A DNA stretch of 64,000 nucleotides from Hoeflea sp. Lineage in GTDB: Bacteria; Pseudomonadota; Alphaproteobacteria; Rhizobiales; Rhizobiaceae. The translations under genes and the position numbers were made by a program. Below the pieces are notes generated by a model. That model saw only the letters and a list, made by a program, of their open reading frames with translations. It ran no database searches and was not told the DNA's origin. Below, in pieces: positions 2,087-35,745 of this stretch; positions within the stretch are counted from its first letter, which is position 1, and every line of letters starts with the position of its first letter. Location of the stretch: assembly GCF_030682515.1 (NCBI RefSeq), contig NZ_JAUXOD010000135.1, positions 5,335-69,334 of the forward strand, read 5' to 3'.

Positions 2087-4024
2087 CTATTGGGGTTGCG
2101 GCTCCATGCCAGGATCCGGCTCATCGCCCTTCTTGCCCGCTCCGCCCTTCTTGGCGCCAGCGGTCGGAACCGCGGTTCCGCGGCTCGGCGGTGTGTCGTC
2201 GCTGTTTTCGCGCACCGGCTTCTCGCCGCGGATCAGCGCATTGATTTCCTCGCCGGTCAGCGTCTCATATTCGAGCAGGCCTTCGGCGATGGCAACGAAA
2301 TCCTTCTTCTTCTTGGTCAGGATGGTCCGCGCCTCGTCATAGGCCTGGTCGATCAGGCGGCGGATCTCGCTGTCGATCTTCTGGGCGGTGGACTCGGACA
2401 CGTTCTTCTGCTGAGCCACGGAATGGCCCAGGAACACTTCCTGCTGGTTCTCGCCGTAGGCGACCTGGCCGAGCTCGTCGGAGAAGCCCCATTCGGTGAC
2501 CATGGCGCGGGCGAGCTTGGTCGCCTGGACGATGTCGGAGGACGCACCCGAGGTGATGTTCTCCTTGCCGAAGGTGAGTTCCTCGGCGACACGGCCGCCC
2601 ATCATGATGGCGAGCCGCGAGATCATCCACTTGTAGCTCATCGAATAGCGGTCGCCCTCGGGCAGCTGCATGACCATGCCGAGCGCACGGCCGCGCGGGA
2701 TGATCGTGGCCTTGTGCACCGGGTCGGCGGCGGCGACATTGAGCGCGACCACGGCGTGGCCGGCCTCGTGATAGGCGGTGAGCTTCTTTTCTTCCTGGGT
2801 CATGGCGGTCGAGCGACGCTCGGCGCCCATCATCACCTTGTCCTTGGCGTCCTCGAACTCGGCCATCGTCACCAGCCGCTTGTTGCGACGGGCGGCCAGC
2901 AGCGCGCCTTCGTTGACGAGGTTCATGAGGTCCGCGCCGGAGAAGCCGGGCGTGCCGCGGGCCAGAACCTTGAGATCGACATTCGGCGCCATCGGCACGT
3001 TGCGGACATGCACCTTGAGGATCTTCTCGCGACCATTGACGTCGGGCAGCGGCACGACGACCTGGCGGTCGAAGCGGCCCGGACGCATCAGCGCGGGGTC
3101 GAGCACGTCGGGGCGGTTGGTGGCGGCGATCAGGATGATGCCTTCATTGGCCTCGAACCCGTCCATCTCGACCAGCAGCTGGTTGAGCGTCTGTTCGCGC
3201 TCGTCATTGCCGCCGCCAAGTCCGGCGCCGCGATGACGGCCGACCGCATCGATTTCGTCGATGAAGATGATGCAGGGCGCATTCTTCTTGGCCTGCTCGA
3301 ACATGTCGCGCACGCGGCTTGCGCCGACGCCCACGAACATTTCGACGAAGTCGGAACCCGAGATGGTGAAGAACGGCACATTGGCTTCGCCGGCCACCGC
3401 GCGCGCCGTCAGCGTCTTGCCGGTGCCGGGAGGGCCCACGAGCAGCACGCCGCGCGGAATCTTGCCGCCCAGCCGCTGGAACTTCTGCGGATCGCGCAGG
3501 AACTCGACGATTTCCTCAAGATCCTGCTTGGCCTCGTCGACGCCCGCCACGTCAGCGAAGGTGACGCGGCCATGGGCCTCGGTCAGAAGCTTGGCCTTGG
3601 ACTTGCCGAATCCCATCGCGCCGCGCGAGCCGCCCTGCATCTGCCGCATGAAGAAGATCCACACGCCCAGAATGAGCAGGATCGGCAGCCAGGAGATCAG
3701 ATAGCCCACCAGCGTGTTGGAGCTGTCGACTTCCGGCCGGGCGGTGATCGTCACGTTGCGCGCGTTGAGGCGCTGGATCAGCCCCGGATCGCCGGGCGAA
3801 TAGGTCTGAAAGCCGGTGGCGGCATCGGTGTAGTTGCCGGAAATGCGCTCGCCGACGATGGTCACGTCGCGCACCCGTCCGGCTTCGATGTCGGCGAGAA
3901 ACTGGGAATAGGCGATGTCGCGCCCGGTGGTCCGTTCACTCGGAGTCTGAAACATGTTGAACAAAGCGATCAACAGGAGCGCGATGATTGCCCAAAGGGC
4001 GAAATTGCGGAAGTTGGGGTTCAT
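2087..4024 (-). CDS. ftsH: ATP-dependent zinc metalloprotease FtsH
   Basis: Two TM segments, Walker A GPPGTGKT, Walker [39 protein letters not shown] zinc motif. Confidence 0.98.
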
Positions 4025-4090
4025 GCTCGTCCTCGGAGATCATGGCCTGGGGCCACCGGTGCAAAACCGGATTTCGATATTGACTTTGTA

Positions 4091-6409: not shown

Positions 6410-6533
6410 AGTTGACCTCACTACGCGGGCAATGACCCGGATCTCCGGGATCCGGACATCTGGCATAACGCATGGCGCGATATCAAATCAACGCACAAAC
6501 GGGCCAAACTATGGTGATCGCGAGAGTTCAACG

Positions 6534-6586: not shown

Positions 6587-7093
6587 TTAGCTGCCGGCTC
6601 CGCCAACCACGGTGACCGCGCGGCGGTTCTGCGACCAGCAGGAAATGTCGTCGCAGACCGCGACCGGACGTTCCTTGCCGAAAGAGATGGTGCGCATGCG
6701 GTTGGACGGGACGCCGCGGGACGACAGGTACTGCATGGTGGCCGATGCACGCCTTGCGCCCAGCGCCAGGTTGTATTCGCGGGTGCCGCGTTCGTCGGCA
6801 TGGCCTTCGACCGTGATCTGATAGTTCGGATACTGGTTGAGCCACTGGGCCTGGCGGTCAAGCGTCGCGGCTGCATCGGCGCGGATCACCGAGGAATCGG
6901 TGTCGAAGAAGATCCGGTCGCCCACATTGACGGTGAAATCCTGCGGCGATCCGGGCGTCGCGCTGCCGGCGAGACCGAGATCGGAGGCATTGTTGGGCAG
7001 GTTGTTCTTCTTCGAAGCGCAGCCGGTCAGCACCAGCGCGGTGAAAAGCGCCAGCATCGCCGGGTTACGGGCAATAGTCTGCATGCGGCCCAT
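6587..7093 (-). CDS. pal: Peptidoglycan-associated lipoprotein Pal
   Basis: Lipobox LTGC, OmpA-like domain with GHADERGTREYNLALGARRA and SQNRRAV. Confidence 0.97.
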   Translation of the reverse strand: MGRMQTIARNPAMLALFTALVLTGCASKKNNLPNNASDLGLAGSATPGSPQDFTVNVGDRIFFDTDSSVIRADAAATLDRQAQWLNQYPNYQITVEGHADERGTREYNLALGARRASATMQYLSSRGVPSNRMRTISFGKERPVAVCDDISCWSQNRRAVTVVGGAGS

Positions 7094-14666: not shown

Positions 14667-15176
14667 TCAGAGTTTGCCGTCGTCCCAGATGATGTGTTCC
14701 GTCGTGCCGGGCAGACTCTCGATGCGATCGGCCAGAAACACCGGCGGCAGCGGCAGCGCCTCGAGGCAGGCGCGGGTGGCCGGAACCCATTTGAACTCCA
14801 GATGGTTCTTGCCGTCGGCATTCTCGTGCACGATGCGGCCGTCTGGGGCGTAGGGAAAGCTCTGCGGAATGTCCATGAGGTAATACCAGCCGACCTCGTG
14901 CCAGTCCCGGTCTTCGAAGTGGAAGAAATTCTCGACCAGGAACACCAGCCGTCCGACCGTCACCGTGACGCCGAGTTCCTCCTCCATTTCGCGCACAAGG
15001 GTCGTGCGGCTGTCCTCGCCCAGTTCCGCGGTCCCGCCGGGAATGGTCCAGAACGGCTCATGCACCGCCCGGTGGACCAGAAGATGGCCGTCGCGCAGCG
15101 CAAGTCCGGCCACCCGCGCATTGAAGCGGCGTCCCTGGTCGTTGAAGCGGATGGTCTTGCGACTCTTGTGGCTCAT
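14667..15176 (-). CDS. NUDIX hydrolase
   Basis: Nudix box [25 protein letters not shown]; its ATG overlaps the ruvB stop (ATGA). Confidence 0.88.
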
Positions 15177-16210
15177 TCTTCTTCAAACAGGCTCGCCTGG
15201 GTGGCGGCGAGATCCCTGGGCGGATTGAGCCCCATATGCCCCCAGGCCCGCGCCGTCAGCACCCGGCCGCGCGGCGTGCGCTGCAGGAATCCCTGCTGGA
15301 TCAGATAGGGCTCGATGATGTCCTCGATGGCGTCGCGCGGCTCCGACAGCCCGGCGGCGATGGTTTCGATCCCCACCGGCCCGCCGCCGAAATTGCGCAC
15401 GATCATGTCGAGATAGCGCCGGTCGAGCTGGTCGAGCCCGATGCTGTCGACCAGCAGCCGGGTCAGCGCCTCGTCGGCGATGGTCTTCGTGACCGCCTCG
15501 ACCTTGGCCACTTCGGCGAAATCGCGCACGCGCCGCAGGAGTCGCCCGGCGATGCGCGGCGTGCCGCGCGCACGGCGGGCGATCTCGAGCGCGCCGTCAT
15601 CGGTCATGCCGAGCCCCATGATCCGCGCGCCGCGGCGCACGATCAGCTCGAGTTCGGGCACGGTGTAGAACTGCAGCCGCACAGGAATGCCGAACCGGTC
15701 CCGCAAGGGCGTGGTCAGCAGCCCGAGCCGCGTGGTGGCGGCCACCAGCGTGAACCGCGACAGGTCGATCTTGACCGAGCGCGCCGCCGGCCCCTCGCCG
15801 ATGATCAGGTCGAGCTGGAAGTCCTCCATCGCCGGATAGAGAATTTCCTCGACGGCCGGGCTCAGCCTATGGATCTCGTCGATGAACAGCACGTCGCGGT
15901 CCTCGAGATTGGTGAGCAGTGCGGCGAGATCGCCGGCCTTGGCGATCACCGGGCCGGAGGTGGATCGGAAATTGACGCCCAGCTCCTTGGCCATGATCTG
16001 CGCCAGCGTGGTCTTGCCGAGACCCGGAGGGCCCACGAACAGCACGTGGTCGAGCGCTTCGCCCCGGCCCTTGGCGGCTTCAATAAACACCTTCAGATTG
16101 GCCCGCGCCTCGGCCTGGCCGGTGAACTCGTCGAGCGTTTGCGGGCGAAGGGTGGTGTCAAAATCCTCGCCGCGCTTGTCGGGGGTGATCAGGCGTTCGG
16201 CGTCGCTCAT
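15173..16210 (-). CDS. ruvB: Holliday junction branch migration helicase RuvB
   Basis: [60 protein letters not shown]. Start set at MSDAERL (ATG 16210). Confidence 0.97.
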
Positions 16211-16602
16211 GAGAGGAACTCCATGCCGGGCACCTGTTTCGACGCCAGTTTGTCGAACGTGACCGTGTGGCTGCATCCGGCTTTCGCGGACGTCCATGCA
16301 ACGAAATAGTCCGCGATGTCGGCCGCGGGTTCGCCCGCCCTCAGCAAGGCGTCGAGTTCTTCCGTCATCTCGATCACGAGCCCGTCGCTGGCCAGCAGAT
16401 CACGCAGAATGCGGGTCACATCCGTCATCGGATACTTCAGCCGGCGGTTCAAGACCCAGACCGTCTCGGCAACAACGATGGCGCTGACATAAGCGGGATC
16501 ATCGGCGTTCCGGCTGCCAAGCCAGCGCCTGGCTGTCAGTCTCTGGTCGCTCTCGTCCTCCACAAGAAACCGAACGAGGATATTGGTATCGATGCCGATC
16601 AC
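16207..16602 (-). CDS. vapC: PIN-domain (VapC-like) toxin of TA module 2
   Basis: [28 protein letters not shown]: PIN acidic residues appear intact. GTG 16602 overlaps the antitoxin TGA; the toxin TGA overlaps the ruvB ATG. Confidence 0.88.
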
Positions 16603-16883
16603 TCTGTTGCTTCCTGCCATTCGGACACGGTCCGACGTTCATCTTCGGCCACAGCGTCCATGACGGCCTCCCGCATCTGTTCGATCGTCAGGGTTTCACC
16701 ACTCGGCGGCTTGCCAAGCGCCCCTGCAAGGTCGGCGAGTTTCTTGTTCTTCGGCACAGCCACGACATGACCATCGTAGGTGGTCACGTAAAACTGTGTC
16801 CCTGCCGTCAGGTTCAATTCATCCCGAACGTTCTTGGGGATGGTCAACTGACCCTTCGAGGTCATGGTGGTGAGGGCGCCCAT
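16599..16883 (-). CDS. AbrB/MazE/SpoVT-family antitoxin of TA module 2
   Basis: MTSKGQLTIPKNVRDELNL swapped-hairpin motif; AGAGG RBS. Confidence 0.88.
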   Translation of the reverse strand: MGALTTMTSKGQLTIPKNVRDELNLTAGTQFYVTTYDGHVVAVPKNKKLADLAGALGKPPSGETLTIEQMREAVMDAVAEDERRTVSEWQEATE

Positions 16884-16884
16884 T

Positions 16885-16946
16885 ATTCTTACCTCTCGAA
16901 AAAATTCTTACACCTTCAGTTTAGTAAGAATATCGTCGTAGAACAA
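16885..16946 (-). promoter_or_regulatory. Internal sigma70-type promoter and repeated operator of TA module 2
   Basis: Minus strand TTGTTC (16946-16941)-17 nt-TAAACT (16923-16918). ATTCTTAC occurs at 16885-16892 and 16904-16911, with its inverse GTAAGAAT at 16924-16931. Confidence 0.65.
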
Positions 16947-16947
16947 C

Positions 16948-17565
16948 TCACCGCGCCAGCTCCTTCAACCCCAGCCGGATCAACCTGGCCGAATCGGGAT
17001 TCTCGCCGGCATTCTTCAGCGCGGCGGCGACCGCGGTGGCGGCCTGATCGCGGGAATAGCCGAGATTGGAAAGCGCCGAAACCGCGTCCGCCACCGGCGC
17101 GGGCGCGACGCCTTCGCCGAGTTCCTGCCTGAGGCCCATGGCGCCGCCGGCCTCGCCCGAATAGGCCGGCGCCTTGGTCTTGAGCTCGGTGACGATGCGC
17201 TGCGCCACCTTGGGCCCGATGCCCGGGGCGCGGGCGATCATCGCCTTGTCCTGAAGCGCGATGGCATTGGCGAGATCGGAGGTCGTCAGCGTCGAGAGGA
17301 CCGCGAGCGCCACCTTGGCGCCCACCCCCTGGACGCTCTGCAAGAGCCGGAACCACTCCCGCTCCAGGACCGTCTCGAAGCCGAACAGCCGCAGTTGGTC
17401 CTCGCGCACATAGGTCTCGATGTGGAGCACCGCCGCCTCGCCCACCGATCCGAGCCGCGACAGCGTGCGGGTCGAGCAATAGGCCACGTAGCAGACGCCG
17501 TGCACGTCGATCAGCACGTGGTCGTCCGCAATTTCTTCTATGCTGCCTTTGAGTTTGCCGATCAT
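16948..17565 (-). CDS. ruvA: Holliday junction branch migration protein RuvA
   Basis: [62 protein letters not shown]. Start at ATG 17565. Confidence 0.97.
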
Positions 17566-17975
17566 GGGTGCGTATCCGGAGCTATGATGTCGAGCGTCGG
17601 GAAATAGCTGCGGTAGCCGGCGGGATCGCGCGTCAACAGCCGGTGACCCCGAACCACCGCATGGGCGCCGATCAGGAAATCGGGCAAAGTGCGCTCGCGG
17701 CTGCCGCCATTGTTGCGGTAGATCCGGAAGGCCCTCCCCGCCGCGAAAGCCGAACCCCATGGAAGGTGCTCACGCTGGAACTCGGAAGGATCGAGCAGCG
17801 CATCAACCTCTTCCACCGACTCGTAGCGGTAGGAAAATTCACTGAAGATCACCGGATTGATGACCAGAGCGCCCTTCTTGAGCGCCTCCGCCATCCGGCC
17901 GCGCGACCAGTCCCGCCACTCCGGATCGCGAAAGGCGACATCGATCAGGACATTTGTATCGACCAGGGTCGCCAT
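17562..17975 (-). CDS. vapC: PIN-domain (VapC-like) toxin of TA module 1
   Basis: [36 protein letters not shown]. Its TGA overlaps the ruvA ATG. Confidence 0.9.
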
Positions 17976-17978
17976 GTC

Positions 17979-18230
17979 CTAGCGATCCCGCGTTTCGCGC
18001 ATCACGTCGTCCGCGCTGAGCGTCGGATCGCCGGTGCCCTCGAGCCGGTCGAGCGCGGCAAGAAACCGCGCCAGGCGCTGCTTGTCGGCCTTCCGTTCGC
18101 TGCCATCCTTGGCTTCGAGGAAAATCCGGCCGCCTTCCACAGAGAAGACAACCTCGCTGTTGGCCTTAATTCCTGCCAGATCGCGAAGGTTCTTCGGGAT
18201 CGTCACCTGACCTTTTTCCGAAACGCGCAC
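17979..18230 (-). CDS. AbrB/MazE/SpoVT-family antitoxin of TA module 1
   Basis: RVSEKGQVTIPKNLRD motif; GTG start with GGAG upstream; ends 3 nt before the toxin ATG. Confidence 0.88.
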   Translation of the reverse strand: MRVSEKGQVTIPKNLRDLAGIKANSEVVFSVEGGRIFLEAKDGSERKADKQRLARFLAALDRLEGTGDPTLSADDVMRETRDR

Positions 18231-18243
18231 CTTATCACTCCAA

Positions 18244-18286
18244 GTCTGAATAATTCCAACTTATTCCGACCTGCAGAACACGTCAA
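18244..18286 (-). promoter_or_regulatory. Internal sigma70-type promoter and palindromic operator of TA module 1
   Basis: Minus strand TTGACG (18286-18281)-17 nt-TAAGTT (18263-18258). Inverted repeat GTC-T-GAATAA-N7-TTATTC-C-GAC at 18244-18270 overlaps the -10. Confidence 0.7.
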
Positions 18287-18290
18287 GAAC
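18276..18290. promoter_or_regulatory. LexA (SOS) box, alphaproteobacterial type
   Basis: GAAC acgtcaa GAAC, i.e. GTTC-TTGACGT-GTTC on the coding strand: a perfect match to the established GTTC-N7-GTTC consensus, enclosing the -35. Confidence 0.75.
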
Positions 18291-18297
18291 AAATCTG

Positions 18298-18804
18298 TCA
18301 CTCAGCCGCCATGCGCCAGGCCGGCGATGTGCGGTGATGGGCGTGGCAGATGGCGATTGCCAGCGCGTCGGCGGCGTGATCGCTGTCGAACGTGGCCTTG
18401 GGCATCAGCACCCTGACCATCATGTGGATCTGCTTCTTGTCGCCGTGGCCCACGCCGATGACCGCCTTCTTGACCGCGTTCGGCGCATATTCAGCGACAC
18501 GCAGGCCCGCCCGCGCCGGCACCACCATGGCGATGCCGCGCGCCTGGCCGAGCTTCAGGGTGGCGGTGGCGTCCTTGTTGACGAAGGTGTTCTCGACCGC
18601 CGCCTCGAACGGCTGGTAGAAGTGCAGCACGCTTTCCAGGCCATCATAGAGCTGCTTGAGCCTTGAGGCGAGATCGAGCTTGCCGTCAGACTTGACCGTG
18701 CCCGACGCGATGAAGCGCAGCGAATTGCCGAGCGTTTCGACAACGCCCCAGCCGCTGTTCCTGAGCCCGGGATCAATACCGATAATCCGAATCGCTTCCG
18801 CCAT
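18298..18804 (-). CDS. ruvC: Crossover junction endodeoxyribonuclease RuvC
   Basis: [65 protein letters not shown] 18804 (TTG 18810 is an alternative). Confidence 0.97.
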
Positions 18805-18849
18805 GCCCAAATCCTATCCGTGACGGATCGAGCTTTCCATCACAAAGGT

Positions 18850-18864
18850 GAACAAACCAAAAAC
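18850..18864. promoter_or_regulatory. Probable LexA box upstream of ruvC (1 mismatch)
   Basis: GAAC aaaccaa AAAC, i.e. GTTT-TTGGTTT-GTTC on the ruvC strand, 46 bp upstream of the ATG. Confidence 0.5.
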
Positions 18865-18964
18865 AAATGCGCTCACGCAAACGTGCGTTTTGCATTCTTG
18901 CGACAGACACCTACATGGAGGCAACCCAAGACGCTTGCGTTTTCAGCCCAGGAAAGTTTTTCAT

Positions 18965-34851: not shown

Positions 34852-35745
34852 ATGATGAATGCAACCATGGCGCAGCAGATGACGGACAAGGACGGCTTCA
34901 TCGCCGCGCTCGACCAGTCGGGCGGGTCCACGCCCAAGGCGCTCAAACTCTACGGCGTGGAGGAAGGCGCCTATTCGAATGACCAGGAGATGTATGCGGC
35001 GATCCACGCCATGCGCGCCCGCATCATCAAGTCCCCCGCTTTCACCGGCGAGAAGGTGATCGGCGCGATCCTGTTCGAGCGCACCATGGACAGCGACATC
35101 GACGGCATCCCGACCGCCGATTATCTCTGGGACAAGCGCGGCATCGTGCCGTTCCTGAAGGTCGACCAGGGCCTGGCCGGGGAAGAGAACGGCGTGCAGC
35201 TGATGAAGCCGATCGGCGGGCTCGACGCGCTTCTGGACCGCGCGGTGGCCAAGAATATCTTCGGCACCAAGATGCGGTCCGTCATCAACGCCGCCGACAA
35301 GGACGGGATCGAGGCGATCGTCGCCCAGCAGTTCGAGGTCGGCAAGCAGATACTCGGCCACGGCCTGATGCCGATCATCGAACCGGAAGTGAACATCAAG
35401 ATTTCCGACAAGGCCGAGGCCGAAGACCTGCTGCTGGCAGCACTCGGCCGTCACCTCGACACCTTGTCATCGGGGCAGAGGATCATGCTCAAGCTGTCGC
35501 TGCCGACCAAGACCAATCTCTACAGGAAGCTGGTGGACGATCCGCGCGTCATGCGCGTGGTGGCCCTGTCGGGCGGCTATTCCCGCGACGAAGCCAACCG
35601 CCTGCTGTCCGCCAATGACGGCGTGATCGCCTCCTTCTCGCGCGCGCTCACCGAAGGCCTGTCCCACGGCCAGAGCGATGCGGAGTTCGATGCGACCCTC
35701 GCCGCCACCATCGACAGCATCTACCAGGCGTCCCGCGCCGCCTGA
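34852..35745 (+). CDS. fda: Class I fructose-bisphosphate aldolase (short bacterial Fda type)
   Basis: FIAALDQSGGSTPKAL, GAILFE, PFLKVDQGL, GTKMRS, PIIEPEV, VVALSGGYSR, ASFSRAL. Confidence 0.9.
   Translation: MMNATMAQQMTDKDGFIAALDQSGGSTPKALKLYGVEEGAYSNDQEMYAAIHAMRARIIKSPAFTGEKVIGAILFERTMDSDIDGIPTADYLWDKRGIVPFLKVDQGLAGEENGVQLMKPIGGLDALLDRAVAKNIFGTKMRSVINAADKDGIEAIVAQQFEVGKQILGHGLMPIIEPEVNIKISDKAEAEDLLLAALGRHLDTLSSGQRIMLKLSLPTKTNLYRKLVDDPRVMRVVALSGGYSRDEANRLLSANDGVIASFSRALTEGLSHGQSDAEFDATLAATIDSIYQASRAA

Follow-up and report, generated by a model that had tools for sequence, protein, structure and literature searches.

A predicted LexA operator over the -35 element of a putative vapBC-ruvA promoter within the ruvCAB operon of Hoeflea sp.

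Several toxin-antitoxin pairs are known to carry an SOS box (a LexA operator) in their own promoter, among them yafNO, dinJ-yafQ and tisB of Escherichia coli and higBA of Caulobacter crescentus, a chromosomal pair controlled jointly by LexA and its antitoxin, as well as the higBA of IncC plasmids (PMC8230891; see also PMC13384398). The ruvCAB operon of Alphaproteobacteria is itself a known or predicted SOS target: SOS induction of the ruvC promoter was shown experimentally in Caulobacter (PMC12700426), and the site table of Sanchez-Alberola et al. 2012 (PMC3323433, Additional file 4) lists, in its ruvA column, the predicted LexA site GTTTGTTCTTGACTTGTTCTCGT of Agrobacterium radiobacter K84. 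Here, we describe a 15-nt element, designated O2, that lies between ruvC and an inserted toxin-antitoxin pair, vapB1-vapC1, in the ruvCAB operon of Hoeflea sp. (Alphaproteobacteria; Rhizobiales; Rhizobiaceae). The window analyzed is a stretch of 64,000 nt of contig NZ_JAUXOD010000135.1 (assembly GCF_030682515.1, positions 5,335 to 69,334 of the forward strand); all coordinates below are window positions, and the operon with its control elements lies on the minus strand. The LexA motif, SOS control of alphaproteobacterial ruvCAB, the sequence class to which O2 belongs and LexA-controlled toxin-antitoxin pairs are all already known or predicted. What appears to be new in this analysis is the association of the box with the pair, its distribution among the Rhizobiales and its overlap with a putative -35 element; a literature search found no described LexA-controlled VapBC and no such association inside ruvCAB.

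O2 (GTTCTTGACGTGTTC, 18290..18276, minus strand) reads GTTC-TTGACGT-GTTC and is a perfect match to GTTC-N7-GTTC; the repeat unit in fact comprises 6 nt, TGTTCT, with its two copies 11 nt apart, and the operator would be of the alphaproteobacterial direct-repeat type, TGTTC-N6-TGTTC. The element starts 7 nt past the ruvC stop codon TGA (18300..18298), within the 67-nt gap that separates ruvC from vapB1 (18297..18231). Its spacer holds the -35 hexamer TTGACG (18286..18281) of a putative internal promoter, followed after a 17-nt spacer (18280..18264) by the -10-like hexamer TAAGTT (18263..18258), an arrangement that we found exactly as given in the original prediction, made from the letters of the window without database searches. 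Transcription would start near 18251, ahead of the ribosome-binding site GGAG (18241..18238) and the GTG start codon of vapB1 (18230). O2 accordingly sits where LexA operators sit, in the promoter region of a repair/SOS unit and over its core elements, the promoter being predicted from its conservation. We consider it very likely that the 15-mer is a LexA operator laid over the -35 element of an internal sigma-70-type promoter for vapB1-vapC1-ruvA, because the matrix score, the conservation, the 17-nt spacing, the presence of separate antitoxin repeats and the published K84 prediction all agree. On this reading, vapB1-vapC1-ruvA would be SOS inducible.

A 23-nt LexA matrix was built from 55 non-redundant published Rhizobiales sites (Sanchez-Alberola et al. 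2012, PMC3323433) of Agrobacterium, Sinorhizobium, Brucella and Ochrobactrum; these belong to lexA, recA, uvrA, ssb, dinB, uvrD, imuA and recG, and the ruvC and ruvA columns were excluded. Over the roughly 128,000 positions on both strands of the window, the extended 23-mer of O2 (ATTTGTTCTTGACGTGTTCTGCA, 18272-18294) scored 22.3 bits and ranked second. The best score, 24.1 bits, belongs to a site upstream of ruvC, designated O1, so the top two ranks are the intergenic sites flanking ruvC, and the third-best position (15.0 bits) lies in coding sequence. By comparison, the leave-one-out scores of the 55 training sites range from 13 to 35 bits (median 25.2, lower quartile 20.9). A score of 22.3 bits was reached in 3 of 200 block-shuffled windows and in 2 of 20,000 shuffled gaps (~0.0001). 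The exact pattern appeared on either strand in 223 of 200,000 shuffles of the 67-nt gap (~0.001), close to the chance of about 0.002 estimated at the outset. Among 1.9 million positions of 80 related loci, 95 sites scored at least 20 bits, and all but about two of them are the O1 or the O2 element, which puts the background of the matrix at about one per million positions at that score.

These 80 loci, all from Rhizobiales and centered on ruvC, constitute the comparison set; the closest RuvC matches of the window are Hoeflea genomes, at 86-93% identity. A VapBC pair lies between ruvC and ruvA in 36 loci (one of them, L059, cut by a contig end), and the box is kept shortly past the ruvC stop codon in 35 of the 36, in the genera Mesorhizobium, Rhizobium, Shinella, Aminobacter, Aurantimonas, Agrobacterium, Allorhizobium and Endobacterium, which belong to several families; the VapB proteins of the related loci are 36-69% identical to VapB1 of the window. 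We aligned 35 ruv-embedded promoters, namely those of 33 pair-bearing loci, of a Shinella chromosome (L087) and of the window. The sequence GTTCTTGACTTGTTC occurs in 29 of these, with single-base variants in the remainder. The spacer varies (TTGACT, TTGACA, TTGACC, TTTACA and, in the window, TTGACG) while the half-sites hold, one locus (L061) having TTTC as its first half-site, and 34 of the 35 promoters share TTGAC. Of the box positions, 14 have an information content of about 2 bits, and only the sixth base of the -35 hexamer varies freely; the T directly 5' of the box reaches 1.7 bits, compared with 0.1-0.9 bits elsewhere in the flanks. In nearly all loci, a -10-like hexamer follows exactly 17 nt after TTGAC, as TAAGTA (18 promoters), TAATTC (6), TAGGTA or TAAGTT.

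Several observations weigh against a LexA-controlled promoter at this position. The exact pattern is found twice in the window against 1.5 occurrences expected, a number reached in 44 of 100 shuffles, and most of the sites used to train the matrix are themselves computational predictions. TAAGTT agrees with TATAAT at three of six positions, and a generic promoter scanner reported nothing between 16000 and 19200, with TAAGTT below its threshold. A second toxin-antitoxin pair, vapB2-vapC2, lies between ruvA and ruvB, and no LexA-like site was found before it either in the window (best matrix score 0.2 bits) or in the relatives, so the box is no general consequence of toxin-antitoxin insertion into the ruv operon. 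Sequencing runs matching the organism comprise metagenome DNA only, with no RNA runs among them; the RNA runs of a Rhizobium tropici relative are stored as contigs with flat depth and display neither starts nor steps. Because the whole-window enrichment of the pattern is not significant, the matrix score and conservation were used in its place; likewise, as the empty promoter scan follows from the three-of-six match of TAAGTT, we relied instead on the conserved 17-nt geometry.

Other explanations of the box differ in how much of the evidence they account for. In the promoters of their own genes, AbrB-type antitoxins commonly recognize short repeats, direct or inverted, and the box is such a direct repeat in the vapB1 promoter; it might be the operator of VapB1 or of the VapBC1 complex and reflect ordinary toxin-antitoxin autoregulation. 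That is very improbable. The window contains a separate candidate for the VapB1/VapBC1 operator, an imperfect 16-nt inverted repeat (CTGCAGGTCGGAATAA-N7-TTATTCAGACTTGGAG, 18276..18238, minus strand, arms 81% complementary) that holds GGAAT(A) direct repeats, spans the -10-like hexamer, the putative start and the ribosome-binding site, and would be bound by VapB1 or VapBC1. Across the ruv-embedded copies, the repeats beside the -10 element are of three classes, which follow the type of antitoxin, whereas the box stays constant: a GTAATACC-N5-GGTATTAC palindrome, a GTAAGAAT..ATTCTTAC palindrome, and GGAATA direct repeats, the last found in the same place in the window and in its closest relative, L010. 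Furthermore, eleven plasmid-borne VapBC homologues (VapC about 50% identical) from Rhizobium, Ensifer, Sinorhizobium, Mesorhizobium, Agrobacterium, Paracoccus, Azospirillum and Sulfitobacter carry the GTAATACC/GGTATTAC repeats before the antitoxin gene, and no LexA-like site was found upstream of any of them (best matrix score at most 5.2 bits). Since these homologues keep the operator without the box, the box is not the antitoxin's site; the class-specific repeats are likely the antitoxin operators, and the box, judging from these alignments, is a separate element confined to the ruv-embedded copies among those compared. Somewhat less improbable, although still unlikely, is that the box is only a core promoter element with a strong -35, TTGAC, or the site of another host regulator that recognizes TGTTC repeats; to our knowledge, no other regulator has a TGTTC direct-repeat motif. 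The invariance of TTGAC and the -10-like hexamer at 17 nt fit a plain promoter, and part of the conservation is owed to RNA polymerase, but this leaves unexplained the four invariant bases on either side of the -35 hexamer, all the more as the sixth base of that hexamer varies. The flanks are the exact half-sites, at the exact spacing, of the LexA motif of the order, the matrix derived from other genes agrees, and the ruv operon is a predicted SOS target in the order (PMC3323433) and a demonstrated one in Caulobacter (PMC12700426). A functionless chance match, finally, would be consistent with the expectation of about 1.5 exact patterns per 64 kb and with the second exact match at 35380..35394 (minus strand), which lies inside an open reading frame that, judging from its translation, would encode a class I fructose-bisphosphate aldolase, has a low matrix score, and is itself taken as a chance match. 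For O2, however, chance is effectively refuted by the gap-specific probabilities of about 0.001 for the pattern and 0.0001 for the score, together with conservation at 35 of 36 orthologous positions across several families.

On the origin of the box, the original prediction had offered that it might be an ancestral ruvA control site captured by the toxin-antitoxin insertion and had proposed looking for it in relatives without the pair. An old LexA-controlled ruvA promoter, with the pair landing just downstream, gains some credit from the absence of the box in the plasmid homologues, which ties it to the ruv location rather than to the cassette family, and from two VapC clades that share the box while differing in their antitoxin operators, as would be possible if cassettes were exchanged behind a fixed site; moreover, internal LexA sites before ruvA exist in gammaproteobacteria (PMC3323433). 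The pair-less relatives speak against it, and we regard this origin as improbable, if less so than a plain promoter element. The box is absent from 42 of the 44 loci without the pair, where the distance from ruvC to ruvA is mostly just -4 to 30 nt; the four nearest Hoeflea genomes have no pair, no box and a gap of 10 nt. The two pair-less loci with a box are L048 and L078. In L048 (Rhizobiaceae bacterium UBA1291, 4019-4090), a degenerate box (GTTTTTGACTTGTTC, beginning GTTT) directly precedes the final nine codons of vapC, with ruvA next; this reads as a clear deletion scar in which the pair was lost and the promoter stayed. L078 may be another such scar: its 237-nt gap contains a perfect box and, at most, faint traces of a pair. 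Among the 13 alphaproteobacterial genomes tabulated in 2012, a ruvA site is listed only for A. radiobacter K84, at -317 (PMC3323433), and no other alphaproteobacterium in that table has one. This distance equals that from the box to the vapC start in loci of the R. tropici group (box at 6513, vapC at 6828), from which it follows that K84 very probably carries the same pair and element. Taken across the compared loci, the box goes with the pair at the ruvC-ruvA location. The midpoint-rooted VapC tree contains two ruv-embedded clades with the plasmid clade between them; because the root is arbitrary, the tree is compatible with one insertion or several, and a single origin of box and pair can be accommodated. 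In sum, the predicted LexA box over the promoter of the pair and ruvA, with its additional antitoxin layer, came through every computational test available, and the part of the prediction concerning an ancestral site did not. The box was also considered as the end or attachment site of a mobile element and rejected in this role, as the opposite end of the pair, at the vapC1-ruvA overlap, holds no second copy.

If the box is a LexA operator, as we favor, its action can be outlined as follows. In an undamaged cell, a LexA dimer would keep RNA polymerase off the -35 element, and VapB1 or the VapBC1 complex would occupy the repeats over the -10 element and the start site. Once DNA is damaged, LexA would cleave itself, stimulated by RecA, and leave the -35 element free; transcription of antitoxin, toxin and RuvA would then rise, still damped by the antitoxin complex; transcriptional induction does not by itself imply release of active VapC1 toxin. 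The internal promoter would transcribe vapB1-vapC1-ruvA and probably continue into vapB2-vapC2-ruvB, since each toxin gene shares an ATGA with the ruv gene after it and no terminator was found. With O1 governing the first promoter of the operon, the whole ruv cluster would stay under SOS control despite the inserted pair. A plausible purpose of the box would then be to keep a constitutive, merely self-repressed toxin-antitoxin promoter from uncoupling ruvA from the SOS response. The analysis shows the anatomy of the sequence, the matrix match, the position-specific conservation and the independence of the box from the antitoxin operator; from these we infer LexA binding, the activity and start site of the promoter, damage induction and co-transcription. 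A bolder version, which we put forward only tentatively, is that VapBC1, rather than riding along passively, has become a domesticated arm of the SOS response, fixed within ruvCAB in many Rhizobiales: LexA would gate a PIN-domain RNase that slows growth or translation after damage, the dosage of the RNase would be tied to that of RuvA through the ATGA overlap, and selection for this coupling would keep the box invariant.

The upstream site, O1 (GTTTTTGGTTTGTTC, 18864..18850, minus strand), has one mismatch to GTTC-N7-GTTC; its 23-mer (ATTTGTTTTTGGTTTGTTCACCT, 18846-18868), which holds the best matrix score in the window, starts about 64 nt before the start of ruvC. The element is found at -62 to -65 in 73 of the 80 loci, at other distances (-67 to -124) in four, and is absent in three; in nearly all relatives that have it, the first half-site is GTTT, not GTTC. 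It corresponds to the ruvC LexA site predicted in Sinorhizobium, Agrobacterium, Brucella and Ochrobactrum in the tables of PMC3323433. Only 7 nt, with no terminator, separate ruvC from O2, so read-through from ruvC is likely; as ruvC has a conserved LexA-like site of its own upstream, the internal promoter is probably not the sole source of ruvA transcripts. In such read-through transcripts, the operator palindrome (18238-18276) would be present as an RNA hairpin whose 3' arm includes the vapB1 ribosome-binding site; it would be absent from transcripts that start near 18251. The predicted fold is weak (-20.5 kcal/mol, z -1.9), and the hairpin, considered as an attenuator in the gap, was set aside as a by-product. 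Two loci, L046 (Rhizobium sp. C4) and L049 (R. aquaticum), lack a LexA-like site upstream of ruvC and retain the internal box, which may be the only SOS input to their ruv genes.

The genes of the operon follow one another closely. The first, ruvC (18804..18298), is followed by vapB1 (18230..17979), which starts with GTG and encodes an 83-aa antitoxin of the AbrB/MazE/SpoVT type (PF04014, E 8e-10, 39 bits), and, 3 nt after the vapB1 stop codon, by vapC1 (17975..17562), encoding a 137-aa PIN-domain toxin (PF01850, E 4e-12, 47 bits) whose translation has all four acidic residues, D6, E46, D98 and D116. With a PIN toxin, an adjoining upstream gene for a small DNA-binding antitoxin, and promoter repeats of a kind that would suit autoregulation, the pair has the makeup expected of a type II VapBC system. 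The stop codon of vapC1 and the start codon of ruvA (17565..16948) overlap in ATGA at 17562-17565 (CACCCATGATCGGC), and ruvA would be translationally coupled to vapC1. After a gap of 64 nt (16947..16884), vapB2 (16883..16599) and vapC2 (16620..16207) follow, and the latter again shares an ATGA, at 16207-16210, with ruvB (16210..15173), the start of which was set at the ATG at 16210, where homologue alignments begin. These overlaps suggest that the translation of a toxin and that of a repair protein are coupled at two places in the operon, and with ATGA at both toxin ends there is no room for separate promoters before ruvA or ruvB. Third-position G+C is 0.70-0.75 in the four toxin-antitoxin genes versus 0.85-0.88 in the ruv genes, as expected for acquired cassettes.

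The second pair (vapB2-vapC2, 16207..16883) has three GTAAGAA/TTCTTAC repeats in its own promoter gap (16884-16947), and pairs occupy this second position, between ruvA and ruvB, in 28 of the 80 loci. Among the loci that lack it (e.g. L006-L012, L031, L053 and L080), many Mesorhizobium-like ones have a short conserved pattern, gCTTGyc ... atGCAAGGA, before ruvB in the ruvA-ruvB gap; this is perhaps a small promoter, or else some structured element. In one locus, L052 (Aminobacter aminovorans), the box occurs twice, at 6520 and 6845, about 325 nt apart and each time before an antitoxin-like open reading frame, which looks like a tandem duplication of box and antitoxin ahead of a single vapC.

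Among described systems, the nearest to the window is the K84 site: it shares motif, operon and sequence class with O2 (GTTTGTTCTTGACTTGTTCTCGT versus ATTTGTTCTTGACGTGTTCTGCA), and both are predictions. It is tabulated only, and no intervening toxin-antitoxin pair is mentioned in the table entries (PMC3323433). In Rhizobium leguminosarum 3841, a tractable rhizobium, the locus (RL3987/RL3988) has the same vapB-vapC-ruvA-ruvB order, and transposon insertions in vapB, vapC, ruvA and ruvB share one phenotype class there, with root-attachment phenotypes common to the vapBC and ruvAB insertions (PMC11406972). The shared class fits polarity within a single transcript and lends co-transcription indirect support. 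No promoter or LexA site is mentioned around vapBC in the sections of that paper concerned with these genes (PMC11406972), and the box is to be expected in this locus, which is outside the 80 compared. If LexA binds O2, the element would provide rhizobial genetics with a clean two-repressor promoter, in an arrangement shared with R. leguminosarum 3841.

The SOS promoter of E. coli ruvAB and the internal ruvAB LexA site of some Vibrionaceae resemble the arrangement proposed here in having a LexA site after ruvC and a damage-inducible promoter for ruvA or ruvAB, and also in having genes of foreign origin inserted into ruvCAB (PMC3323433). They differ in the motif, CTGT-N8-ACAG, and in the site lying directly before ruvA, whereas in the window the pair intervenes, and relatives without the pair lack the site; O2 accordingly does not behave as an ancestral ruvAB SOS promoter, for which a site before ruvA would be present in relatives without inserted genes. 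LexA binding at O2 would show a repair operon keeping its damage control after the insertion of a selfish pair with its own promoter, and would leave unchanged what is known of LexA motifs and of the SOS control of ruv genes.

Caulobacter higBA is the closest counterpart among toxin-antitoxin systems. Like vapB1-vapC1, it is a type II pair with an SOS box in its promoter and the antitoxin as second repressor, and it belongs to an alphaproteobacterium with the same LexA motif. The toxins belong to different families, HigB being a ribosome-dependent mRNase and VapC1 a PIN-domain RNase, and higBA lies outside any repair operon; damage induction of higBA was shown experimentally, and that of vapBC1-ruvA is predicted from the box. 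Should LexA bind O2, a PIN-domain VapC would join the short list of SOS-wired pairs, which consists mainly of HigBA, YafNO and TisB.

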